Made by a program: the position numbers and the translations under genes
The notes under the pieces: generated by a model
Databases searched by the model: none
The model's input: the letters and a program-made list of their open reading frames with translations, nothing else
Told to the model about the DNA's origin: nothing
Shown: one piece after another, positions 1-53,184 of the stretch
How positions within the stretch are numbered: the stretch's first letter is position 1
How the letters are laid out: every line of letters begins with the position of its first letter
Source: an uncultured Alphaproteobacteria bacterium
GTDB taxonomy: Bacteria; Pseudomonadota; Alphaproteobacteria; Sphingomonadales; Sphingomonadaceae
DNA: 64,000 bases
Assembly (NCBI GenBank): GCA_963751145.1
Contig: CAVVTJ010000007.1
Location: forward strand, 106,136 to 170,135
Direction: 5' to 3'

Positions 1-1713
1 CAGCCCATGGCCTCCAGCGATGGCCGCGCCATGCTGGTGTTCAATGGCGAGATCTACAATTTCCGGGACCTGCGCGCTGAACTGAAAAGCCACGGGGCAG
101 AGTTTCATACCGATGGCGATAGCGAAGTCATTCTGGCCGCCTGGCAGCGCTGGGGTCCGGCCTGCGTATCGCGGCTGCACGGCATGTTCGCTTTTGCGAT
201 CTATGATCTGACAACCCGCCAGCTGTTTCTGGCGCGGGACCGGCTGGGGGTAAAGCCGCTATTCTACGCTCCGCTCAGCGATGGCAGCCTGGCCTTTGCC
301 TCCGAGCTCAAGGGACTGCTCGCCCACCCCTTGCTGCGCCGCGATATCGATCCGCTGGCCGTGGAAGACTATCTTACCTGGGGCTATGTGCCCGATCATC
401 GCAGCTTCGTGGCGGGCGTGCACAAACTGCCAGCGGGCCATACCCTGCTGTTGTCGCACGGAAAGCCGCTGCCGCAGCCGCAGCAGTACTGGGACGTCAG
501 CTTCGCCGATCGCCGTCAGGGCCGCACTGCCGATCTTGAGGCCGAGCTACTGCACTTGCTGCGTCAGGCTGTTACTTCGCGAATGGTGTCGGATGTGCCG
601 CTGGGGGCGTTCCTGTCGGGCGGAGTAGACAGTTCGGCAGTAGTGGCGCTGATGGCTGAGGCCAGCAATTCCCCGGTCAAGACCTGCTCGATCGGGTTCG
701 ATGTCGGCGCTCTCGATGAAAGCTCCTACGCCGAGCAAGTTGCCCGGAAATTCGCCACCGATCACCGCGCGCGGCAGGTTTCGGCTGACGATTTCGAGCA
801 TGTTGATGAGCTGGCGGCGATGTTCGATGAACCCTTTGCCGATGGTTCGGCGCTGCCAACCTGGCGCGTATGCCAATTGGCCCGCGAAACGGTGACGGTG
901 GCTTTATCGGGCGACGGCGCCGACGAAGCCTTCGCCGGATACCGCCGCCATAAGTTTCAGCATGGCGAAGACCGCGCGCGCAGCTTCATGCCGCAGGCGT
1001 TGCGCGGGCCCGTGCTGGGCGGGCTGGGCAGCGTCTATCCCAAAGCCGATTGGGCCCCGCGTCCGCTGCGGGCCAAGACCACGCTGCTCTCGCTCGCCGG
1101 TAGCAGCGAAGCGGGCTATTCGCGCGCAGTGGCGATCCTCCCGCCGGAACTGCGCCAGTCGCTCTATTCGCCGGAATTCCTGCGGCTGCGCGGTGATTAC
1201 CGCGCCGAGCAACCGTTTGAGGCGCTGATGCGCGGCGCTCCGGCGCGTTCAGGGCTGGACCGGGCGCAGTACGCTGACCTCAAATTTTGGCTGCCCGGTG
1301 ATATCCTGACCAAAGTTGATCGCACGAGCATGGCGGTGAGCCTTGAGGCGCGCGAGCCGCTGCTCGATCACCGGCTGATCGAATTTGCTGCCAGCCTGCC
1401 CGAAGGGCTGCGGTTGAAGCGGGGGCAGGGCAAGTGGCTGCTGAAGAAGACCATGCAGCGCTATCTCCCCGAAGAGATCCTTTACCGCCCCAAGCAGGGG
1501 TTTGTGACTCCGATCAGCCAATGGCTGCGCGGGCCGCTGGCGGCAAGCGCGCGGGCGATCGGATCAAGCGCCGCGCTGGCGCGGACCGGCTGGTTCGATA
1601 GCAACACCCTATCTGCCATGGCCGAGGCACATATCGCTGGCCGATCAGACCATGGCCGGATGCTGTGGCAGCTTCTGATGCTGGACAAGGCGATCGCGCG
1701 GCTCTCAGCCTAA
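1..1713 (+). CDS. asnB: Asparagine synthase (glutamine-hydrolysing) family amidotransferase, XrtA/PEP-CTERM exopolysaccharide-associated type; 5' end truncated by the window edge
   Basis: Motifs VFNGEIYNF, ARDRLGVKPL, LSGGVDSS, SGDGADE and ILTKVDRTSMAVSLEAREPLLD; the YPKADWAPRPLRAKTT segment is typical of the exosortase-A-associated subfamily. The N-terminal MCG catalytic start lies before position 1. Confidence 0.9.
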   Translation, partial: QPMASSDGRAMLVFNGEIYNFRDLRAELKSHGAEFHTDGDSEVILAAWQRWGPACVSRLHGMFAFAIYDLTTRQLFLARDRLGVKPLFYAPLSDGSLAFASELKGLLAHPLLRRDIDPLAVEDYLTWGYVPDHRSFVAGVHKLPAGHTLLLSHGKPLPQPQQYWDVSFADRRQGRTADLEAELLHLLRQAVTSRMVSDVPLGAFLSGGVDSSAVVALMAEASNSPVKTCSIGFDVGALDESSYAEQVARKFATDHRARQVSADDFEHVDELAAMFDEPFADGSALPTWRVCQLARETVTVALSGDGADEAFAGYRRHKFQHGEDRARSFMPQALRGPVLGGLGSVYPKADWAPRPLRAKTTLLSLAGSSEAGYSRAVAILPPELRQSLYSPEFLRLRGDYRAEQPFEALMRGAPARSGLDRAQYADLKFWLPGDILTKVDRTSMAVSLEAREPLLDHRLIEFAASLPEGLRLKRGQGKWLLKKTMQRYLPEEILYRPKQGFVTPISQWLRGPLAASARAIGSSAALARTGWFDSNTLSAMAEAHIAGRSDHGRMLWQLLMLDKAIARLSA

Positions 1714-1739
1714 TCCCTCGAGCCAGTTGCTAAGCCCAA

Positions 1740-1771
1740 ACGAAAGCAGCCCCGACTTTCGTCGAGGCCGC
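1740..1771 (-). terminator. Rho-independent terminator of the small peptide gene
   Basis: Minus strand reads GCGGCCTCGAC-GAAA-GTCGGGGCTGC followed by TTTCGTTT: an 11-bp stem (with G-U pairs), a GNRA tetraloop and a U-rich tail, about 20 nt after the stop at 1792. Confidence 0.75.
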
Positions 1772-1791
1772 TGTTCAAATATGGTGATCGC

Positions 1792-1848
1792 TTAGCGGCG
1801 ACCCAAAACGCGTTCCAGGCTGTCCCAGAAATCAAATTCAGTCTGCAT
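1792..1848 (-). CDS. Small peptide, 18 aa, MQTEFDFWDSLERVLGRR (up to 23 aa if an upstream in-frame ATG at 1860 or 1863 is used)
   Basis: GGAGG 5 nt upstream of the ATG at 1848, TAA at 1794-1792, and a dedicated terminator downstream. Absent from the ORF track because it is under 60 aa. Confidence 0.6.
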   Translation of the reverse strand: MQTEFDFWDSLERVLGRR

Positions 1849-1902
1849 GTCGACCTCCATCATCCGCACGAGCCTCGGTTAGACCCGCTTGCCCCGCAGT
1901 TT

Positions 1903-1943
1903 ATAACGAAATCGTAACCATTTGCAATAGGACGATGTTAACC
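1903..1943. promoter_or_regulatory. Degenerate CtrA-like box (ATAA-N7-GTAACC, 1903-1919) plus TTAACC half-site (1938-1943) upstream of the peptide ORF
   Basis: Resembles the alphaproteobacterial CtrA consensus TTAA-N7-TTAAC with two mismatches; lies in an AT-rich intergenic tract. Confidence 0.35.
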
Positions 1944-2197
1944 ACGACCATTCATAGATCTGGCAAATTTACCATTGAAAATCAAATAGGTAGTAGTTGA
2001 ATTGGAGGGGTGCCGAATTACTTTGCTGCGCGCTGACAAGTGACACGACAGCTCGATTCGCTGCGAATCGAACAGAGTCGCGAGGCCGAATCGTAGCAAG
2101 CTGTCGATGCCGGTAGCTATTCAAGCAGTTCGGCGCGGCTTCTATTCGAAGCCACGCGAGTAGGTGTTTACTTGATGATTTTTGAAATCGCGCAGAA

Positions 2198-4507
2198 TTA
2201 GGCAGCGCGGATTCGACTACTTGCGCTGAGCAGCGATTCCAATGCTTCGATCCGCATCGGCTTGGCCAGATAGTACCCTTGGGCAATATCGCAGCCGATC
2301 GCGCGTAACAGTTCAAGCGTTTCGGGATCTTCGATCCCTTCGGCGATCACCCGGCGGCCCAGGCCATGCGCGAGTTCAATCGTGGATTCGACGAGCAACA
2401 TGTCACCGTTGTCCTTGACCAGACTGGTAACGAAACTGCGATCAATCTTGATTTCCTGACACGGAACCGAGCGCAAATATTCCAGCGTGGCATTGCCTGT
2501 ACCGTAATCGTCAATCGACAGATCGATCCCCAAAGCGGCAATGCCGGCAAGGTTGTTTGCCACTGCCTGATTGTCCGCAAAAGGTGCTGATTCGGTTACT
2601 TCCAGTGTCAGGTTGGAAGTCGGAAACTCAACTCGGCCAAGAATATCGACAATCATCGCCGGGAGCTGGGGCTGTTCCATCAGTGTGGCCGAGATATTGA
2701 TGCTGAGCCGGAAGGCAGGGTTCTGCGCAATGATCGGCTTGGCCGCACGCGTTGCTAGTTCCAGCACATGATAGGTCAACCGGCTGATGCGATTGTGTTC
2801 CTCGGCCTGCAAAATGAAGGCCTCTGGCGAAATGGCGCCGCGTACCGGATGTTGCCAGCGCACAAGAGCTTCGGCGCCGATGATCCGGTCTGTCTTCAGT
2901 TCGAACTGCGGTTGATAGGCTATCCAGATGTCGCCGCCATCGACGGCTGCATCCAGCTCGCTCATCAAGGAAAGCTCCCACGCGCCTTCTTCATCGTTAT
3001 CAGATGTGTTGAACATGTAGGGCTGGTGTTTGGACGCAGCCGTATCGGCGGCGAGCAGCGCCCGTCCGATCCGGTTCGCAACAGGCCGGGCGATGTCAAG
3101 GTCAACCCCGAAGGCGACGTGAACATCGATCTTGCGGCCTTGCACCACAAACAGGCTTTCCATCAGCCGGGCCAGACCTGCCAGATGGCCATCAAGTTCG
3201 TGCTGCGGCAGCACTGGACCAAGCCAGTAAAGCACATCTTCGGCCTGGTAAAAATTCGTCGCTTGACCAGGCAGGGTAAGCCTGCGGGCTATTTCGGTTA
3301 TCAGAATGCTATCGACCGATTCAGAGAAACTCGCGCCAACTGCAGCATAGTTGCGGATCCGCATCGCGATAATTGGTTTGCTGGAAGCCAAGGGTTCTTC
3401 GCGCAGTGCGGAAAGATTGGGGAAGAGTGTGGCCGCGTTCTTGAGCCTCGCGTCGTTCAACTCACGCAAGGTATGGCTGCGATAGGCAACGATACCGAAG
3501 AGTAGAAAAGACGATAGCAGATCGACCTTGATAAGCCACGCATCAAGGACGAACGGTACAATAGCAGCGGCAAACAATGCACCAAGCGCTACATAGAATG
3601 CAGTCCGCCGTGACCGCGTCCAAAGCATCAGGGCTGAAAGAGCAATTGCCAATGCCATAGCTGGCTGCCAGCCAAAATCTCTGGGTTTGCCCTCTCGAAG
3701 GGTCTGTGCTCCAACGGCATGTCCGTACACACCGGGAAACCAACCTTGTCCAGGAATTTGGACGAAATCCGGTTCGGAGCTGGCCGTAACCCCGATCAAC
3801 ACGTCTTTGCCATTGATCGCCGCCGGAGGGATTTTGTTCTCAAGAATATCGATCAGACTAAACGTCGGAACTGTCGAAACCTGGATCGCCCAATCGGGTC
3901 GATACAACTTAGTGTCGGTGGGATTGATTCCTGCGATGTCCGATGAAATGGAAGGGACGATCTTGCCGTCGAAGTCGTTCGCATAAAAGAGATCGACCGA
4001 TAGCGAGAACGGAGCGACCTTGGCATACAGCGAGCGCATCTCGGCCGCATTGCGGTATCTTTCGAGTGGGACCAGCTCGAAGCTTCGACCGGGCACTTTG
4101 CTCTTGGACGTACTCACGCCGACAAACGTGCGGCCTTTGTGGCGTCGCAACGAATCTTCGAACGCCTTGTCGCCCGCTTCATCCATCGGGATTGAGAATA
4201 CTTCGTCGAAATAGGCCCGTTTGGCTCCCAATGCGAAAAGCCGGTCGAGCGCCTTGGCATTGAAGCTGCGAGGATAGTAGCTTCCGCCCAGCGCCTTGAT
4301 GGTTTTCTCATCGATGCCTACAACGACCACTTGCCCGTCGGCTGGCCGCGCACGCAAAATGTTGCGGCCACCGCGGTAAAGGTCTTCCAGCGGCACCAGG
4401 AAGTTGACGGACGCCATCCACAGGCAAATCAGCAGCGCGGTCGCAAAAATCCACGTCCGCGAGGCGGGTTTCTTCGATTTGGAGTTGCGACGGAACGGCC
4501 AGATCAT
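2198..4507 (-). CDS. CHASE2 + TM helices + degenerate GGDEF + EAL c-di-GMP phosphodiesterase
   Basis: CHASE2-like VVVVGIDEKTI and GKDVLIG...PGVYGHA, followed by three hydrophobic helices. EAL catalytic motifs are intact (AEALVRW, DDYGTG, EIKIDRS, AEGIE, QGYY); no GG(D/E)EF. Start placed at MIWPF (4507). Confidence 0.9.
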   Translation of the reverse strand: MIWPFRRNSKSKKPASRTWIFATALLICLWMASVNFLVPLEDLYRGGRNILRARPADGQVVVVGIDEKTIKALGGSYYPRSFNAKALDRLFALGAKRAYFDEVFSIPMDEAGDKAFEDSLRRHKGRTFVGVSTSKSKVPGRSFELVPLERYRNAAEMRSLYAKVAPFSLSVDLFYANDFDGKIVPSISSDIAGINPTDTKLYRPDWAIQVSTVPTFSLIDILENKIPPAAINGKDVLIGVTASSEPDFVQIPGQGWFPGVYGHAVGAQTLREGKPRDFGWQPAMALAIALSALMLWTRSRRTAFYVALGALFAAAIVPFVLDAWLIKVDLLSSFLLFGIVAYRSHTLRELNDARLKNAATLFPNLSALREEPLASSKPIIAMRIRNYAAVGASFSESVDSILITEIARRLTLPGQATNFYQAEDVLYWLGPVLPQHELDGHLAGLARLMESLFVVQGRKIDVHVAFGVDLDIARPVANRIGRALLAADTAASKHQPYMFNTSDNDEEGAWELSLMSELDAAVDGGDIWIAYQPQFELKTDRIIGAEALVRWQHPVRGAISPEAFILQAEEHNRISRLTYHVLELATRAAKPIIAQNPAFRLSINISATLMEQPQLPAMIVDILGRVEFPTSNLTLEVTESAPFADNQAVANNLAGIAALGIDLSIDDYGTGNATLEYLRSVPCQEIKIDRSFVTSLVKDNGDMLLVESTIELAHGLGRRVIAEGIEDPETLELLRAIGCDIAQGYYLAKPMRIEALESLLSASSRIRAA

Positions 4508-4646
4508 GTGGCACCGTGTGATCGGCCCGCAGGCGATCCCGAAAATGTGCAGCAATTCAGCGCATTTTCGCAGGTCTGCGAAGCGCCTCTGGTGCTTTCA
4601 AGCGGGATGATCCCGGTCCACATAAGGCCGCACTAGGGGCAAAACG

Positions 4647-4661
4647 GTAACAATTCGTTAT
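4647..4661. promoter_or_regulatory. Degenerate CtrA-like box upstream of the CHASE2-EAL gene
   Basis: Reverse strand ATAACGAATTGTTACC matches the 1903 motif ATAACGAAATCGTAAC at 12 of 16 positions. Confidence 0.3.
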
Positions 4662-4698
4662 CCCTACCATGGGGTAAGGATGCCGGTTCCGCCTGCGC

Positions 4699-5814
4699 TC
4701 ACTCTTCGCCGTGACCGGCCGCAAGGTATTCGCTGCTTTGCATTTCCTTGAGCCGTGAGACGGTACGCTCGAATTCGAAGGCGCCATCGCCGCGGGGATA
4801 GAGCGCTTCGGGTTCGGCTGCGGCTGCGGCGAACAGCTTGACCTTGTTTTCGTACAAGGCATCGATCAGCGTCACAAAGCGCGCGGCTTCGTTGCGGTTT
4901 TCCGGGCCCATCTGCGGAATCCCGACCAGAATCACGGTGTGATAGGTCTGCGCGACTGCCAGGTAATCGGCCGCTCCGCGGGCCTCACCGCACAGCTTCC
5001 TGAAACTGAACACCGCCACACCCTTGAGGCTTTTGGGCACATGCAACACGCGGCCGCCGCCCAGCGCGAGATCGGCTGAGGGCACATGGGCACTGTCTTC
5101 AGGCGGATAGTCGGTCAGTCGAAAAAAGGCTTCGCGCACCTGATCGGTCGCCGCATCGCCTAGCGGGCTGTGCCAGGTGTCGATCCCGGCCAACCGTTCC
5201 AGCCGGTAATCGTGCGGGCCATTGAGCGCCATGACGTCAAGTTTCTGCTCGATCAGGGTGATGAAAGGCAGGAAATGCTCGCGGTTGAGGCCGTCCTTGT
5301 AGAGTTCTGACGGGGCACGGTTGCTGGTGGTGACGATCACCAGACCGTGGCTTTCGATCAGGGCGGTGAACAGCCGGCTCATGATCATCGCGTCGGCGGA
5401 ATTGTTGACCACCATCTCGTCAAAGGCCAGCACGCGCAGGTTCTCGGCGATTGCTGCGGCCACTGCCGGGATCGGATCGCCGCTCTCGCTTTTGCGCGCC
5501 TCACGCAGGCGGGCGTGGACTTCGATCATGAAGGCGTGAAAGTGGGCCCGGCGTTTCTCCGGGATGGCCAGACAGTGATGGAACAGGTCCATCAGCATCG
5601 ACTTACCGCGCCCGACGCCGCCCCATAGATAAAGCCCGCGCAGCGGCTTTGGCTTATGTCGCGCAAGCCGCCACAGCAGCGAACCGCGCGCCGGGATCGC
5701 CTCAAGCGCTTGTTGCAGGGCGTCCAGCCGCTCAGCCGCGGCGCGTTGCTCTGGATCGGCGCGCAGCTCACCCGCAGCGACAAGCGCTTCATACCGGGCC
5801 AGTACTGCAGTCAT
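4699..5814 (-). CDS. zapE: Cell division ATPase ZapE (AFG1/LACE1 family)
   Basis: Walker A GGVGRGKS, Walker B LAFDE, TTSNR and RFVTLIDALY motifs. Start moved to MTAVL (5814), which overlaps the upstream stop. Confidence 0.92.
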   Translation of the reverse strand: MTAVLARYEALVAAGELRADPEQRAAAERLDALQQALEAIPARGSLLWRLARHKPKPLRGLYLWGGVGRGKSMLMDLFHHCLAIPEKRRAHFHAFMIEVHARLREARKSESGDPIPAVAAAIAENLRVLAFDEMVVNNSADAMIMSRLFTALIESHGLVIVTTSNRAPSELYKDGLNREHFLPFITLIEQKLDVMALNGPHDYRLERLAGIDTWHSPLGDAATDQVREAFFRLTDYPPEDSAHVPSADLALGGGRVLHVPKSLKGVAVFSFRKLCGEARGAADYLAVAQTYHTVILVGIPQMGPENRNEAARFVTLIDALYENKVKLFAAAAAEPEALYPRGDGAFEFERTVSRLKEMQSSEYLAAGHGEE

Positions 5815-6272
5815 CTGGGGGAAGTGGGTTTGCGGATAGTGCCAGAAAATGCGGCGATCAAATTGCCTTCGCCTTGCTCCACCACGCCGCGCAGGAACAC
5901 CAGCCGCCGGGTCTCCTTGAGCAGCTCGGTCACCGCATCGCACGGTAGATCGGGCTTTCCCGCGCCGATAAACTGGACCGAGAGATCAAGCGTCACTGCT
6001 GTCCCCGCCTCGATAATCCCCAATTGGCGCGAGCAGGCGAACAGGCCGATATCGATTAGCGCCATCACCGCGGCGCCGTGGATATTGTTGCCCAGATTGG
6101 TGTGGCGGCGTTCAGGAAACATCCGCAGCCGCGCCTTGCCATCGGCGTCGGCGCGGACCAGCAGTTTTGGGAACATCCAGCTGTTGAAGCGCGTCGTGTC
6201 GTTCAGCTGCCAGGTCTGCCAGCCGGGATTGTCCGGATCGGGCTCGCTGCGGAAACCGCGATCGTCGCTCAA
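5811..6272 (-). CDS. PaaI family thioesterase (hotdog fold)
   Basis: [18 protein letters not shown] motif. Probable TTG start at 6272 overlapping the sdhB stop. Confidence 0.85.
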
Positions 6273-7133: not shown

Positions 7134-7670
7134 TCACAATGCGTCAGCAATTCCCCCTGGGCCTAGAAGCTTCGTGATGAGAATTGCGAGAGCAAGCGCG
7201 GCGATGACGATGGCGCCGATCATCATCAGACGCGCCATCGCCATCGGGCGTTCATTGCTGCTCAGCCATAATGGCGTATCAGCCGAAAAAAGAGCGGAAA
7301 GCTGCGACCCATCCAATCCTGCATCACCAAACTTTTGCGACCCGCCGATGATGCCGGCTTGAATACCTTCCGCGCTGGCCCCTTCGCCGCCGGGAGCCTG
7401 GTCTGGAAGGTGAATTTTCTGCCATGTCGGCATTTCGTCGGCTGTTTCTGTAGAAAAATTCAGCCGGTAAAGTCGAGCCAGTTCGCCGCGCGGCAAACCG
7501 CCCAGTCTGGCCCGGACGATTTCGATCCGCTGATTGACGGCACTTTCGGAAATACCAAGCAGGCCCGCAATTTCCTTGCTGGTGCGATTGTCAGCAACCA
7601 GCGCCAGCACTTCGCGCTGCTTTCTGGTTAGCTGCGGCAAGGATCGCTCTGCGTGAGCTCTGCTGTTCAT
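7134..7670 (-). CDS. LuxR-type HTH regulator with C-terminal transmembrane helix (paralog 1)
   Basis: LTRKQREVLALVADNRTSKEIAGLLGISESAVNQRIE is a LuxR/GerE HTH at the N-terminus; hydrophobic LMMIGAIVIAALALAILITKLL at the C-terminus. Start at MNSRA after an AAGAAGG RBS. Confidence 0.8.
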   Translation of the reverse strand: MNSRAHAERSLPQLTRKQREVLALVADNRTSKEIAGLLGISESAVNQRIEIVRARLGGLPRGELARLYRLNFSTETADEMPTWQKIHLPDQAPGGEGASAEGIQAGIIGGSQKFGDAGLDGSQLSALFSADTPLWLSSNERPMAMARLMMIGAIVIAALALAILITKLLGPGGIADAL

Positions 7671-7722
7671 TGTGCACCCTTCTTGCGGCATCATACCTCA
7701 CCGCGCCACTCTCGACAAATAC

Positions 7723-8226
7723 TCAACGCTGGTGCGGCTGATAATCCGGCCCCTTAACGCGAAGCGGCGCCTTTCCTCTGCGCCAATCGAAAAAGATTCC
7801 GGTCCAAAGCGCCACGACAAGCAGGGCGTTGGCCATTGCGGCGATCAGCTGGGAAGCCAGCGCGGCCGGACCAGTGAGCAGAGCCGCGCAGCCAAGAGCA
7901 AGCGCAGCCAGCAGTGCGGCTGCACCCGCAGCCAGCGGATATATTCGCCGCGAGCGTAGAACGATCGGCAATATCAAGCCCAAGCCAACGATTGCGCACA
8001 ACGCGTGAAGCCCGCTGCCCGAACCATAGGCCCACCATGCCAGCCCATGCAGCAATGCCATCGCAAAGGTAGCCGCCGCGAGCGCCTGAGCAGTGGGACG
8101 ACCGCAGCGCCAGGCAAGGATCAGCGTGCCCGCGATCACCAGCATCAAGGTCGATGGCCATTGCATCGTGAGCAGCGATAGCGCCGCTTGTCCGGGCTGG
8201 GTGATGGCGATGGGCGCGGGGTGCAT
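7723..8226 (-). CDS. Polytopic membrane protein of unknown function (about 5 TM)
   Basis: Almost entirely hydrophobic, with short basic loops (AWRCGRP, LRSRRIYPL). ATG overlaps the upstream TGA (TGATG). Confidence 0.7.
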   Translation of the reverse strand: MHPAPIAITQPGQAALSLLTMQWPSTLMLVIAGTLILAWRCGRPTAQALAAATFAMALLHGLAWWAYGSGSGLHALCAIVGLGLILPIVLRSRRIYPLAAGAAALLAALALGCAALLTGPAALASQLIAAMANALLVVALWTGIFFDWRRGKAPLRVKGPDYQPHQR

Positions 8227-51525: not shown

Positions 51526-51555
51526 TAAACCCCGGTTTAACCACTCGCGGGTTAT
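51526..51555. promoter_or_regulatory. CtrA-like box TAAA-N7-TTAACC followed by GGTTAT in the divergent tipN-like/Hpt promoter
   Basis: One mismatch to TTAA-N7-TTAAC; the same architecture recurs at 53156. Confidence 0.6.
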
Positions 51556-51898: not shown

Positions 51899-53170
51899 TT
51901 GGCACCGCGACTTTGCGCGCCTAAATCGGCCTCCCATTCCCGATTGGTGCGGAGAAAGACACTGCGGGTCGCGCTTTTGCCGATGCTGGAAATTGCTGTT
52001 GAAAGTGGCGGAGTGCCGCGGGCATTTCTGCGCGTTGGCGGGTCAAGCGTGGCCGGTCAGCAATTGGCAATTGCGCTGGGTTTGGGGTGTGAGCGGATTG
52101 TCTGCCTCGCTCTCTCGCTTACCAAAGATATCGTTGCGCTGCAGCATCAGGCGGAAAAGGCCGGAGCGCAGTTTCACGTGATCCCGGGCGCACGACCGCT
52201 GTTGGGGCTGGTCACCGCCACCGACGATGTGATTGCTTTTGCCGATGGGCTGTTTGCAGCCCGCCAGACGGCGCAGGATCTTCTTTCGGCGCAGCAGGCG
52301 GTGCTGGTTCAACCAGTTGAGCAGGGCCTTGCCGCTGGGTTTGAACGGATCGACATCAATCACGCTGCGGCAGGCGCGATGCGCATTCCGGGGCGATTGG
52401 TCGAACGGTTGGGTGAATTGCCGGCCGATTGCGATGTCGTATCTTCACTGCAGCGGATTGCGCTGCAGGCCGGGGTTCGGCAGCAGCCGCTGGGGCAGAT
52501 CGGGCCGGGCGCCGCGATCTGGTTTCTGGCCCGCAGCGAGCGCGAAGCCCACCAGATCGAACCGCTGTGGATCCGTCAGCACACTGGCGATTCGCTGCCG
52601 AACAATCCTTCGGGTGCAATTGCATCGATGGCGGTTCGTGCTTTCGGGCCGGCCATGCTCCACGCCGGAAGCGGATCGGGCGTGCTGGTGGTTGCAGCCG
52701 GCGTGGCGGCTTTGCTGGCGGTCATCGCCGGAGTTTTTGGATTTGTTGCAGCGGGCTTTGGTCTGTGTGTGATTGGCTGGGTCTTGCACGAATTTGCCGC
52801 GCTGCTGTCGCGGATTGAATCCGAGAATGCACCGCATCGGGTCATTGCGGGCGGGCTGTTTGCTTATGGCTGGTCGATCGACGCGCTGCTGGTGGTTTTA
52901 TTGGGACTCGCGGCAAGGCCGGAGCATCAGATGCATGCTGCCGAGCGGTTCTTTCCGGCGCTGATGCTGATAGCACTGCTGCGGATTCTGGCCGAAGTTT
53001 ACAGCGGCCGCTGGAGCCGGTGGATTGGCGATCGCGGAGTAGTGGCGGTCTTGCTGCTGGGCGCGGTAGCGGGCCGGGTGGCTGATGAAACCGCTCATCT
53101 TGGCGCGATCGCCGCGGCAGTGCTTGCGCTGTTGGCGCTGGGCAATAAATCGCGGCTAACCGGGCCTTAA
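51899..53170 (+). CDS. Hypothetical membrane protein: soluble N-terminal domain (weakly nucleotidyltransferase-like) plus several C-terminal TM helices; start uncertain
   Basis: PRAFLRVGGSSVAGQQL resembles the K-x-L-x-x-x-G-G-x-x-x-L start of GT-A nucleotidyltransferases; hydrophobic C-terminal third. Confidence 0.6.
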   Translation: MAPRLCAPKSASHSRLVRRKTLRVALLPMLEIAVESGGVPRAFLRVGGSSVAGQQLAIALGLGCERIVCLALSLTKDIVALQHQAEKAGAQFHVIPGARPLLGLVTATDDVIAFADGLFAARQTAQDLLSAQQAVLVQPVEQGLAAGFERIDINHAAAGAMRIPGRLVERLGELPADCDVVSSLQRIALQAGVRQQPLGQIGPGAAIWFLARSEREAHQIEPLWIRQHTGDSLPNNPSGAIASMAVRAFGPAMLHAGSGSGVLVVAAGVAALLAVIAGVFGFVAAGFGLCVIGWVLHEFAALLSRIESENAPHRVIAGGLFAYGWSIDALLVVLLGLAARPEHQMHAAERFFPALMLIALLRILAEVYSGRWSRWIGDRGVVAVLLLGAVAGRVADETAHLGAIAAAVLALLALGNKSRLTGP

Positions 53171-53184
53171 CCAAACCGGGTTAT
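53156..53184. promoter_or_regulatory. CtrA-like box CTAA-N7-TTAACC followed by GGTTAT
   Basis: One mismatch to consensus; overlaps the upstream stop and the downstream ATG. Confidence 0.55.

Follow-up and report, generated by a model that had tools for sequence, protein, structure and literature searches.

The window (the whole stretch of DNA analysed, 64,000 nucleotides) contains a low-GC cassette of ~3 kb (1714-4698), made up of a gene for a CHASE2-EAL c-di-GMP phosphodiesterase and a micro-ORF located 3' of it. The GC content of the cassette is 0.55 compared to 0.63-0.64 for the flanks, and a GC offset is seen in 9 genomes. It fills a slot between the genes for an AFG1-like ATPase (4699..5811, minus strand; assigned by Pfam; 370 aa, same in relatives) and an asnB-like amidotransferase of the XrtA/PEP-CTERM system (7..1713, plus strand, 5' end cut by the window), with the latter convergent with the cassette. 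The amidotransferase scores 858 bits against TIGR03108 (cutoff 816.9), and in relatives exosortase EpsH/EpsI and glycosyltransferase genes are located downstream of asnB. At locus L018 the AFG1 and asnB stop codons abut, and the slot is hence empty.

The micro-ORF (1792..1848, minus strand) consists of 18 codons followed by TAA (ATG 1848-1846, stop 1794-1792) and translates to MQTEFDFWDSLERVLGRR. A GGAGG Shine-Dalgarno (SD) sequence is located at 1854..1858 (minus strand) with the ATG 5 nt downstream, and the region upstream of the micro-ORF has a GC content of 0.45 compared to a window mean of 0.62. An intrinsic terminator (1735..1772, minus strand) follows, with a 12-bp stem (1772..1745), a GAAA loop and the tail TTCGTTT. 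All components of the minimal expression unit recognised by the first-pass annotation (ORF, GGAGG, AT-rich upstream region and GNRA-loop terminator) were confirmed in place. The terminator stem displays compensatory changes in 6 of 11 predicted pairs across 12 loci, with the U-tract conserved. An A-tract lies opposite the U-tract, and the terminator is possibly bidirectional and shared with asnB; at L008 the same hairpin was scored on the asnB strand. The stretch that separates the EAL gene from the micro-ORF has no canonical terminator, whether in the window or at L005, L008, L009 and L011. A GC-rich hairpin ~35-55 nt past the EAL stop (2141..2164, minus strand; GTGGCTTC-GAATA-GAAGCCGC) lacks a U-tract in the EAL orientation, and its conservation is limited to close relatives. 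The best Rfam match, BjrC68, reached 18.2 bits, well below its gathering score (39), and covered the terminator only, hence no known sRNA family was recognised.

In-frame ATG/GTG codons upstream of the micro-ORF ATG could give a product of 22-25 aa; these starts overlap the SD sequence and show no conservation among relatives. Extended forms (20-30 aa) of four clade-A micro-ORFs (see below) had no match in a collection of 15 billion proteins, and four peptide-fragment strings from the family were not found in the relevant literature searched. A single low-depth metatranscriptome contig of 151 nt spans a micro-ORF of the N. fuchskuhlense type together with its terminator. This contig extends ~45 nt beyond the terminator, and a DNA origin is possible.

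Alignments revealed a promoter/operator block at 1900..1944 (minus strand) with the arrangement TGGTTAAC-N9-TTGCAA-A-TGGTTAC-N6-GTTATAAA. We propose TTGCAA (1927..1922) as the -35 and TATAAA (1905..1900) as the -10 element. The box TGTTAACCA is read on the plus strand at 1936-1944, with a second TGGTTAC at 1920..1914. Both a PWM and an nhmmer profile of the block matched at micro-ORF loci only. A single copy of the 9-mer TGTTAACCA is present in the window; a set of 129 loci contains 11 copies, 9 of which fall in micro-ORF promoters. Exact TGTTAACCA is present at 11/20 micro-ORF promoters, while the others have the TTAACC core, in most cases alone, or a degenerate version. The CtrA motif has been defined as TTAA-N7-TTAA(C) or as TTAACCAT (PMC6847485, PMC6180460), with the ungapped TTAACCAT-type motif being CtrA-type (PMC6180460), and TGTTAACCA includes every base of TTAACCAT except the last. 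Full TTAACCAT is found in a subset of the TGTTAACCA promoters and in some others. The window promoter contains TGGTTAAC, TGGTTAC and TTAC-N7-TTAT (6/8), with no exact TTAACCAT and no full box. We infer that the TTAACCA(T) box of the micro-ORF promoters resembles the ungapped CtrA motif, this being a motif resemblance only.

The phosphodiesterase gene (2198..4507, minus strand) encodes a protein of 769 aa, with CHASE2 and EAL domains assigned by Pfam and a conserved middle region between them. CHASE2 (PF05226) scores 73 bits against a cutoff of 26.3 for residues 50-289, and EAL (PF00563) scores 219 bits. The AF2 model displays pLDDT values of ~90 for CHASE2, ~70 for EAL and <50 for residues 357-512, with helices 17-33 and 281-358 on either side of the confident CHASE2 domain. 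This fits a membrane-bound CHASE2 sensor, in which an N-terminal TM segment and a periplasmic domain precede a cluster of TM helices. No Pfam match to GGDEF was obtained for the middle region (residues ~360-510) even at E=10. When aligned by phmmer to 5m3c and 4rnh, two structures of GGDEF-EAL proteins, the match reaches query residues 387 and 452, and the low-confidence middle region is strongly conserved among orthologues. More than 120 homologues (59-89% identity) are nearly all 765-772 aa long, a uniformity that fixes the CHASE2-EAL start codon. The motifs EALVRW, NIS, LEVTES, IDDYGTG, KIDRSF, AEGIE and QGY can be aligned to those of active EAL domains of solved structure (e.g. 8arv, MorA, MucR), and the signature motifs are invariant across 15 orthologues, bearing out the earlier view that the EAL motifs look intact. 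Profile and signature motifs (EAL, N, ExxE, DDxGTG, K, EGxE, QG) place the domain in the predicted catalytically competent type. A block ~150 nt 5' of the EAL start (4628..4675, minus strand; containing GTAGGGATAACGAATTGTTACCGTTTTGCCCCTAGT) is conserved in 12/12 orthologous loci aligned, irrespective of the upstream gene, and is a candidate promoter/operator for the EAL gene.

Every one of the 15 distinct loci carrying a CHASE2-EAL orthologue (clade A) has an SD+ATG micro-ORF at this position, with a stop-to-hairpin distance of 20-25 nt in each. In shuffled sequences, an SD+ATG ORF of ≥12 codons ending ≤35 nt from the hairpin arises by chance at 1.6-3.3% per locus. Of 14 clade-A loci examined with a strict SD/ORF criterion, 13 passed. 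At L125 the ORF is retained but its SD sequence is weaker (GGGGA); L114, which also keeps the ORF, was left out of this test. Substitutions between close relatives are distributed 14:3:30 over codon positions 1:2:3, and indels are in frame, with one 12-nt deletion among close relatives. The amino-acid sequence of the peptide is, judged by these alignments, under purifying selection within clade A. Across all 20 family members described below, TGG triplets number 31 in frame compared to 9 and 1 in the other frames, Trp accounts for 12% of the residues (P ~2e-15 against a 2% background), and an SD-like motif is located 5-9 nt 5' of the ATG in every case. The first-pass annotation had proposed a gene missed by annotation, to be discarded if the frame or ribosome binding site were not kept in relatives; both are kept, and the clade-A conservation and codon bias uphold the proposal. 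Hence, comparative data indicate that the micro-ORF is a real gene absent from annotation, encoding an 18-residue tryptophan-rich peptide. The region 1944-1735 (minus strand) is, on the same evidence, a self-contained gene with conserved promoter/operator, SD sequence, 18-codon ORF and intrinsic terminator, and the feature under selection appears to be translation of a short peptide of Trp/aromatic plus basic residues.

The micro-ORF family comprises 20 loci, all from Sphingomonadales: 15 in clade A, 4 in clade B and 1 in clade C. Clade B corresponds to four other Novosphingobium (L013, L015, L016, L017) and clade C to a Qipengyuania plasmid (L126); in both, the micro-ORF is located directly 3' of its own CHASE2-EAL stop codon. 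CHASE2-EAL proteins of the three clades share a mutual identity of 28-34% only, and the occurrence of the pairing in all three lineages suggests it is old. No recognisable micro-ORF was found with the Blastomonas CHASE2-EAL gene (L022, 30-37% identical). These co-occurrences do not represent 20 independent events, as they derive from few lineages (15+4+1) within Sphingomonadales alone, and the family looks taxonomically narrow.

Peptide length ranges from 8-18 aa over the family, with 8-12 residues in clades B and C (e.g. MWYILFRRFL and MWRWWNELFGSR). The peptides are hydrophilic (GRAVY -0.2 to -1.4 for the 13 computed), and throughout the family they lack Cys, Pro, a signal sequence and a double-glycine leader. 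The amphipathic helix proposed at first pass is moderately backed by a helical hydrophobic moment of 0.44. The C-terminal GRR, earlier likened to an amidation/dibasic processing signature, occurs in 9/20 peptides only, with the remainder ending in GR, GRS, GER, GNR, GSR, GGKK, FR, FK, FL or VH. Clade-B peptides have no C-terminal Gly, and no modifying enzyme accompanies the pair; the processing idea is thus unsupported. Between clades the peptide sequence diverges, while composition, SD sequence, ATG and position are kept. Such retention is equally expected of a cis-acting translated element.

Clades A and B carry the cassette in opposite orientations in one and the same asnB/AFG1 slot, and after inversion the micro-ORF is still located 3' of the EAL gene and not beside asnB. 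At L127 the pair is retained with a changed downstream neighbour, different exosortase-A genes (TIGR03099/TIGR03098) adjoining it, and the clade-A pair is always found at an exosortase-A locus. On the Qipengyuania plasmid, the 4 kb on either side of the pair are free of XrtA genes. A six-frame motif scan of ~70 XrtA loci without CHASE2-EAL (~20 from Sphingomonadales) revealed no clade-A-type micro-ORF. In none of the three genomic contexts is the pair accompanied by a conserved gene for an exporter/transporter, a protease or a modifying enzyme. The co-occurrence with CHASE2-EAL genes in Sphingomonadales that the first-pass annotation had asked about is thus seen in three lineages and persists through inversion, neighbour change and transfer to a plasmid. 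Enzyme gene and micro-ORF move as one cassette, and gene order supports a genetic tie of the micro-ORF to the CHASE2-EAL gene and not to other neighbours.

The explanation we favour, which we regard as having about an even chance of being correct, is that this micro-protein from outside the annotation is functionally coupled to the CHASE2-EAL phosphodiesterase in the manner of an accessory subunit. The recurrence of the enzyme-plus-peptide pairing in distantly related sphingomonads makes joint action of peptide and enzyme probable. Transcription of the micro-ORF would start at its own promoter, with a probable further contribution from EAL transcripts that read through, given that both genes share the sole canonical terminator. 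The peptide would remain cytoplasmic or at the inner-membrane interface, which suits its Trp/Arg composition, and could modulate the phosphodiesterase via the juxtamembrane or conserved middle region, or via the EAL dimer, to tune c-di-GMP. For the clade containing the window, the change in c-di-GMP would then modulate the neighbouring exosortase-A polysaccharide locus. The peptide would thus resemble small proteins that serve sensor enzymes as accessory subunits, and not an extracellular ligand. The earlier proposal of a ligand-sensor or regulator-target pair survives in part: the genetic tie to CHASE2-EAL in three lineages makes a cytoplasmic regulator-target relation plausible, while the notion of a ligand for CHASE2 finds neither leader nor exporter. 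That an 8-18-aa cytoplasmic peptide might serve as a dedicated c-di-GMP phosphodiesterase regulatory subunit under CtrA-type control is a more tentative proposal, which we hold at somewhat less than even.

Selection may instead act on the act of translating the micro-ORF, or on the short RNA itself, rather than on the peptide, a possibility we rate as unlikely if deserving of weight. This could take the form of an arrest-type or regulatory mini-ORF (Trp-sensing or other) or a dual-function 3'-UTR-derived sRNA with its own promoter, affecting EAL mRNA 3'-end stability or terminator read-through into the convergent gene (antisense). The ORFs of clades B and C are indeed very short (8-12 codons), with a promoter that begins 3-18 nt past the EAL stop and makes use of the EAL terminator, a layout typical of internal-promoter 3'-UTR sRNAs. 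Furthermore, the peptides diverge fast while SD sequence, ATG, Trp codons and position are retained, the stop-to-hairpin spacing is constant, and an aromatic/acidic stretch followed by Arg-stop is loosely like TnaC and SpeFL. However, the hairpin 20-25 nt away is beyond reach of a ribosome at the stop codon and is the only one, with no conserved anti-terminator alternative. The gene that follows in clades A and B is convergent and not co-directional, 5'-UTR and spacer nucleotides are unconserved with no sRNA seed evident, no Rfam family matches at gathering score, and purifying selection appears to act on the clade-A amino acids. An attenuation leader or arrest peptide is disfavoured by the convergent downstream gene (clades A and B) and the single hairpin. 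It is improbable that the micro-protein serves the exosortase-A (XrtA/PEP-CTERM) locus, e.g. in EPS/floc regulation, and adjoins the phosphodiesterase as both are accessories. The cassette abuts exosortase-A genes in all clade-A/B loci (asnB TIGR03108; TIGR03099/TIGR03098 at L127), but the plasmid pair, the XrtA loci devoid of CHASE2-EAL and the position of the micro-ORF after inversion all argue against such a role.

The ligand-sensor pair raised in the first-pass annotation would amount to a secreted signal: the peptide would be exported, possibly processed at G-R-R, and act on the periplasmic CHASE2 domain in autocrine or quorum signalling. Tight linkage to a CHASE2 receptor without known ligand speaks for this, and short Trp/Arg-rich peptides are in general membrane-active. 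If true, peptide signal and receptor would form one self-contained module by which a Gram-negative bacterium sets its c-di-GMP. The peptides are however too short for a Sec, Tat or double-glycine leader, hydrophilic and free of Cys or Pro; no gene for transport, proteolysis or modification accompanies the pair in the three contexts, and GRR is not conserved family-wide. In addition, asnB is no lasso cyclase and is absent at the plasmid copy. Hence, we consider a secreted signal very doubtful, and exit by an unlinked or non-classical route to act as periplasmic CHASE2 ligand equally so. A lasso peptide or other RiPP precursor was also rejected: asnB scores 217 bits against the NF033535 cutoff of 525, the 8-18-aa peptide is leaderless, XrtA loci of many phyla have the amidotransferase without the ORF, and the plasmid copy has no amidotransferase. 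Chances are slim, too, that the peptide is a c-di-GMP-binding element (sponge or substrate-presenting cofactor) like the CleD arginine-rich peptide. Its aromatic, acidic and Arg-rich composition and location beside a c-di-GMP enzyme would fit, and a 19-aa linear peptide provides the precedent, binding c-di-GMP at 177 nM via Arg, Asp and aromatic contacts (PMC7382256). In contrast, the 15-aa truncation of that peptide does not bind (PMC7382256), and clade-B peptides lack Asp and contain 0-2 Arg. A CleD-type peptide was rejected, with the DRR and [R/K]RxxD motifs (~11 residues apart) absent from 20/20 peptides. Comparison across loci effectively refutes a chance ORF in the spacer upstream of the terminator: although ~3% of shuffles yield one 18-codon ORF with an SD sequence, here 20 loci conserve it with a coding signature.

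Genes of 8-18 codons escape annotation. That the pair is kept through ~70% protein divergence, inversion and a plasmid move makes the micro-ORF a strong candidate for a new second-messenger accessory regulator. To our knowledge, CHASE2 receptors have no established input, and small-protein partners known for c-di-GMP enzymes are few. The common TTAACCA(T) box suggests a CtrA cell-cycle/motility link to c-di-GMP and polysaccharide control in sphingomonads, while the apparently narrow taxonomic range of the family limits its general impact.

The closest analogues are MgrB-PhoQ and SafA-PhoQ, likewise tiny ORFs associated with a membrane signalling enzyme, with their own regulated promoter and a presumed modulator role. 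MgrB and SafA are single-pass membrane proteins of 47-65 aa acting on histidine kinases, whereas the 8-18-aa micro-ORF peptide is Trp/Arg-rich, too hydrophilic to span the membrane and has a c-di-GMP phosphodiesterase as its proposed partner. The TnaC, SpeFL and Erm/Cat leaders resemble the micro-ORF in being 8-24 codons long and SD-driven, with Trp/aromatic residues (functionally important in the leaders) and fast sequence turnover. The leaders are located upstream of the regulated gene; the micro-ORF, in contrast, is downstream of its partner and followed by a strong terminator and a convergent gene, with no alternative RNA structure. The layout in clades B and C is that of DapZ/MicL-type 3'-UTR sRNAs, with a promoter at or after the parent stop and use of the parent's terminator, but the micro-gene conserves an SD sequence and a translated frame with in-frame TGG codons and not a seed. 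CleD-derived CSP4 (PMC7382256) is also short, linear, alphaproteobacterial, Arg/aromatic-rich and c-di-GMP-relevant; however, the micro-ORF peptides lack DRR and [R/K]RxxD, and CSP is the tail of a CheY-like protein rather than a stand-alone gene. Lastly, SpfP is a 15-aa protein from the Spot 42 RNA that binds CRP (PMC8916003). It shares no sequence similarity with the micro-ORF peptides, and while a base-pairing seed is conserved in Spot 42, conservation in the non-coding part of the micro-gene is confined to promoter, SD sequence and terminator. SpfP nonetheless sets a precedent for a ~15-aa soluble bacterial peptide from a short terminator-ended transcript acting as a regulator (PMC8916003), and by analogy with Spot 42/SpfP a dual RNA/protein function of the micro-gene is possible.

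The micro-ORF runs on the minus strand from an ATG at 1848 to a TAA at 1792 and encodes MQTEFDFWDSLERVLGRR. A GGAGG Shine-Dalgarno (SD) motif (1858..1854) is located 5 nt ahead of the ATG, the stretch 5′ of the ORF is AT-rich (GC 0.45 vs 0.62 window-wide), and a terminator with a 12 bp stem (1772..1745), a GAAA loop and a TTCGTTT tail is found past the stop codon. Hence, all elements described in the first-pass annotation are present. The unit lies between the gene for the 769 aa CHASE2-EAL protein (4507..2198, minus strand) and asnB (7..1713, plus strand), which encodes an XrtA/PEP-CTERM-system amidotransferase (TIGR03108, 858 bits vs a cutoff of 816.9). Versions of 22–25 aa are possible from upstream ATG/GTG codons; these codons overlap the SD and are absent from relatives. 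The extended forms looked up had no exact counterpart in the protein databases, and the 25-aa form had no match in Pfam or NCBIfam. An Rfam scan of 1600–4800 gave a sole, sub-threshold match on the terminator, while a peptide-motif scan of the 64-kb window revealed no second micro-ORF of this type. Elsewhere, several small HTH proteins of the LuxR/GerE type and a membrane protein are encoded in a row next to sdhB (7134–7694, minus strand); the arrangement is syntenic in several relatives (upstream genes in loci L001 and L007), and its members are possible local regulators.

Homologues of the enzyme at 59–89% identity are all of the Novosphingobium type. The orthologous loci (clade A) comprise the DNA around 12 homologues, one locus recovered by scanning species genomes with asnB as the anchor (L012), one from a metagenome pattern scan (L114) and the window itself. 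An ATG ORF preceded by an SD-like motif is found in the same place at all 15 distinct loci (the SD of locus L125 is weaker, GGGGA), with a hairpin 20–25 nt past the stop; a comparable SD, ATG-ORF and hairpin unit arises in 1.6–3.3% of shuffles per locus. The encoded peptides include MEFWDSLTRLLGRR, MWDWLLDRFTGRR, MWDWREVLRGRR, MELWDWLTTGRGGKK, MTWSIYESLRSWFGRS, MIWSWFARNFGNR (L125), MYDYFYRFFGRR and MGQGWMAWFFGGAGKDK. Among the four closest relatives, differences at codon positions 1:2:3 are distributed 14:3:30, and the sole length change is a 12-nt deletion that is in frame. The terminator stem displays compensatory changes at 6 of 11 pairs. Neither the 5′-UTR nor the post-stop spacer is conserved in the clade-A alignment. 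The conservation of promoter, SD, reading frame and terminator therefore identifies a protein-coding micro-gene, and together with the coding signature upholds the earlier suggestion of a hidden peptide gene. JGI metagenome contigs were also scanned with an unbiased degenerate pattern, [FM]-W-D-[SW]-x … G-R-R-stop plus GGCC, which cannot detect clades B and C. Only one of the 31 matches, a number close to chance expectation, was genuine (L114), suggesting this micro-ORF sub-type is rare in these contigs.

When all fetched DNA was searched generically for units of SD, ATG mini-ORF and terminator and the results were inspected, the micro-ORF was also placed beside two further enzyme clades. Four further Novosphingobium, among them N. 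fuchskuhlense FNE08-7, constitute clade B, with the micro-ORF directly 3′ of the EAL stop on the same strand (peptides MFSRLWAYLVH, MLWHWLFK, MIQIWRIIFR and MWYILFRRFL). The only clade-C member is carried by a mobilizable plasmid from Qipengyuania sp. HL-TH1 (Erythrobacteraceae), on which MWRWWNELFGSR is encoded 63 nt past the CHASE2-EAL gene and is followed by a terminator. This plasmid was the sole match when a plasmid collection was searched by protein, and a search of the collection by DNA gave none. There are no exosortase or AFG1 genes nearby, and the presence of the pair on a plasmid without asnB indicates asnB is dispensable for the pairing. Full-length identity between the three enzyme clades is only 28–34%.

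An SD-like motif is located 5–9 nt ahead of the ORF in 20/20 cases. Trp accounts for 31 of 256 residues (12%; P about 2e-15 vs a 2% background) over the 20 peptides, which derive from one order and few independent events. Aromatic residues account for 24% in total and Arg and Lys together for 19%, with Pro and Cys absent, and TGG triplets occur 31 times in frame compared to 9 and 1 in the other frames of the 20 ORFs. The association with a CHASE2-EAL receptor is thus better supported than the first-pass annotation led us to expect, as it recurs in three enzyme clades. One counter-example is provided by L022, a Blastomonas sp. MAG, where a CHASE2-EAL gene (30–37% identical) lies downstream of asnB and convergent to it, with no recognisable micro-ORF or TTAACCA box beside it. 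Hence, either CHASE2-EAL genes beside XrtA loci have a wider distribution than the micro-ORF, or the latter has been lost at L022. On comparative grounds, these loci establish a micro-gene of translated type with an ancient physical coupling to the CHASE2-EAL phosphodiesterase.

The gene order in clade A is AFG1, EAL and micro-ORF followed by asnB in reverse, while that of clade B is asnB, EAL and micro-ORF followed by AFG1 in reverse. The enzyme and micro-ORF therefore fill the same slot in opposite orientations, with the micro-ORF remaining 3′ of the enzyme gene in both. At locus L018 the AFG1 and asnB stops abut, so the slot is empty, and at L127 the pair is intact although a different exosortase-A gene is located downstream (TIGR03099 and TIGR03098). 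The cassette (1714–4698) is ~8 GC points below the asnB/AFG1 flanks, with the same offset in 8 relatives, and has a GC3 of 0.63 compared to 0.75 in the flanks. Either the cassette is an old foreign insert that was never ameliorated, or its composition is kept for function. In the window, L005, L008, L009 and L011, the enzyme gene and the micro-ORF are not separated by a canonical terminator, making read-through co-transcription plausible. A GC hairpin without a U-tract (2141–2164) is located ~35–55 nt past the EAL stop and is also found in close relatives. The interval from the EAL stop to the micro-ORF promoter furthermore contains a palindrome, CGATTCG-CTG-CGAATCG (about 2058–2074), and the word CGAATC is kept there in nearly all clade-A loci. 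The region could serve as an RNA 3′-end or processing site, or as a protein-binding site.

A 45-nt block (1944..1900) upstream of the micro-ORF is kept in all clade-A loci. It consists of TGGTTAAC, TTGCAA (proposed -35, 1927..1922) and TGGTTAC-N6-GTTATAAA, with TATAAA (1905..1900) as the proposed -10. These hexamers are putative assignments; a generic sigma-70 scanner made no call on the block. Searched for both as a PWM and with an nhmmer profile, the clade-A block had no further copy in the window or the other loci. The exact 9-mer TGTTAACCA is present in 11 of 20 promoters (the window, L001–L004, of which L001 and L002 are one locus, and each of the five loci of clades B and C). Most other clade-A promoters retain only a GGTTAA/TTAACC core, and those of L005, L007 and L011 are degenerate. 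In clades B and C the 9-mer reads in the micro-ORF direction at the -35 position, 3–18 nt past the EAL stop and 39–51 nt ahead of the ATG. The clade-A copy is reversed and farther upstream (1936–1944 in the window), and the spacer there contains a second TGGTTAC. One copy of the 9-mer is present in the 64-kb window and 11 copies in 129 loci (about 1.1 Mb), 9 of these at micro-ORF promoters.

The CtrA binding motif has an ungapped variant TTAACCAT and a full site TTAA-N7-TTAA (PMC6180460, PMC6847485), and a title cited in PMC7200025 places motility and biofilm formation of Sphingomonas melonis under CtrA control. Exact TTAACCAT and TTAA-N7-TTAAC had 0 matches in the window. We regard CtrA-type control of the micro-ORF promoter as a lead. 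TGGTTAA is not enriched over the window, with three copies being no more than chance; the two other heptamers are at 51537–51543 and 53167–53173. An AT-rich near-palindrome lies ~35 nt 5′ of the TGGTTAAC box (TGGTAAATTTGCCA in the window, about 1955–1968; TGGCAAATTTGCCA in L003). It is kept in closer relatives only, and could be an UP-element or second operator.

A conserved block, GTAGGGATAACGAATTGTTACCGTTTTGCCCCTAGT (4628–4675, minus strand), is located ~150 nt 5′ of the CHASE2-EAL start. It is kept in 12/12 orthologous loci irrespective of whether the upstream gene encodes AFG1, a TonB receptor or a pirin, and is followed by a conserved ATG (about 4621–4623) that opens a short non-conserved frame. 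The block resembles aTAA-N7-TTAcC and TTGTTACC, a site of CtrA type that differs from the micro-ORF box by one base. Possibly it constitutes the promoter/operator of the enzyme gene, which would imply co-regulation with the micro-ORF. Boxes of the TTAACCA type, such as CTTAACCATTGGG and GGGTTAACCACGCC of L013, also occur in the clade-B enzyme promoter regions (L013, L015, L016 and L017; asnB stop to EAL start, about 5700–5930); enzyme and micro-ORF may therefore share a regulator there.

The EAL signature residues of the enzyme align with those of solved active phosphodiesterases and are invariant among orthologues. AlphaFold models of the whole enzyme are confident for the CHASE2 domain and moderately confident for the EAL domain, while the conserved middle region (residues 357–512) has no confident AF2 structure and no Pfam match. 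The N-terminus MIWPFRRKSxxKK (4468–4507) is kept across clade A. Some micro-ORF peptides, such as MIWSWFARNFGNR of L125 (L125:5426–5467), resemble the start of this sequence. The likeness is possibly due to chance; alternatively, it might reflect mimicry of the cytoplasmic juxtamembrane tail of the receptor by the peptide.

With respect to expression, the predicted short transcript would measure about 150 nt in the window and roughly 120 nt for the N. fuchskuhlense copy. No RNA run contained the window sequence. At the N. fuchskuhlense-type locus, a 151-nt contig (depth 3) from one freshwater metatranscriptome spans L017:8104–8254, which covers the micro-ORF (8116–8148), the terminator and about 45 nt more; other contigs of the same metatranscriptome fall on the enzyme gene. 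This is a weak sign of micro-ORF expression, with DNA carry-over possible.

We propose that the peptide would act intracellularly, on or together with the CHASE2-EAL enzyme. A cytoplasmic or inner-leaflet location is favoured by several features: 8–18 residues leave no space for a leader, GRAVY values are negative, and the three genomic contexts have no exporter, protease or modifying enzyme in common. Furthermore, the Trp/Arg-rich composition is typical of membrane-interface binders, and the N-terminal tail of the enzyme, MIWPFRRK, is of the same character. Nothing points to export, and the initial view of the peptide as a ligand of the extracytoplasmic CHASE2 domain thus finds no support. 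Similarly, the G-R-R end, initially seen as an amidation/dibasic processing signature, is present in only 9/20 members, and amidation was not adopted. A lasso/RiPP assignment was likewise set aside, given that the asnB-like neighbour is an XrtA-system amidotransferase and not a lasso cyclase.

According to the main rival explanation, what matters is translation or the RNA itself and not the peptide; the fast turnover of the peptide sequence and members as short as 8 codons speak for it. However, there is no gene downstream to regulate and no conserved alternative structure, observations that also led us to reject an attenuator, and purifying selection acts on the amino-acid sequence within clade A.

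None of the family libraries or papers searched contains the peptides or the pairing: a literature string search for the peptides gave nothing relevant, and no paper was found connecting CHASE2-EAL, exosortase and small ORFs. A bacterial regulator of similar size is known, the 15 aa SpfP (PMC8916003), and so is a c-di-GMP-binding peptide of 19 aa (PMC7382256). The micro-ORF peptides lack the motifs of this c-di-GMP-binding peptide, and a role as c-di-GMP sponge was hence not adopted. A micro-protein beside a signalling enzyme is already known as a kind; what is new here, as judged from the predicted product and its setting, is a very short, soluble, Trp-rich peptide encoded 3′ of a c-di-GMP phosphodiesterase and preceded by a CtrA-like box.
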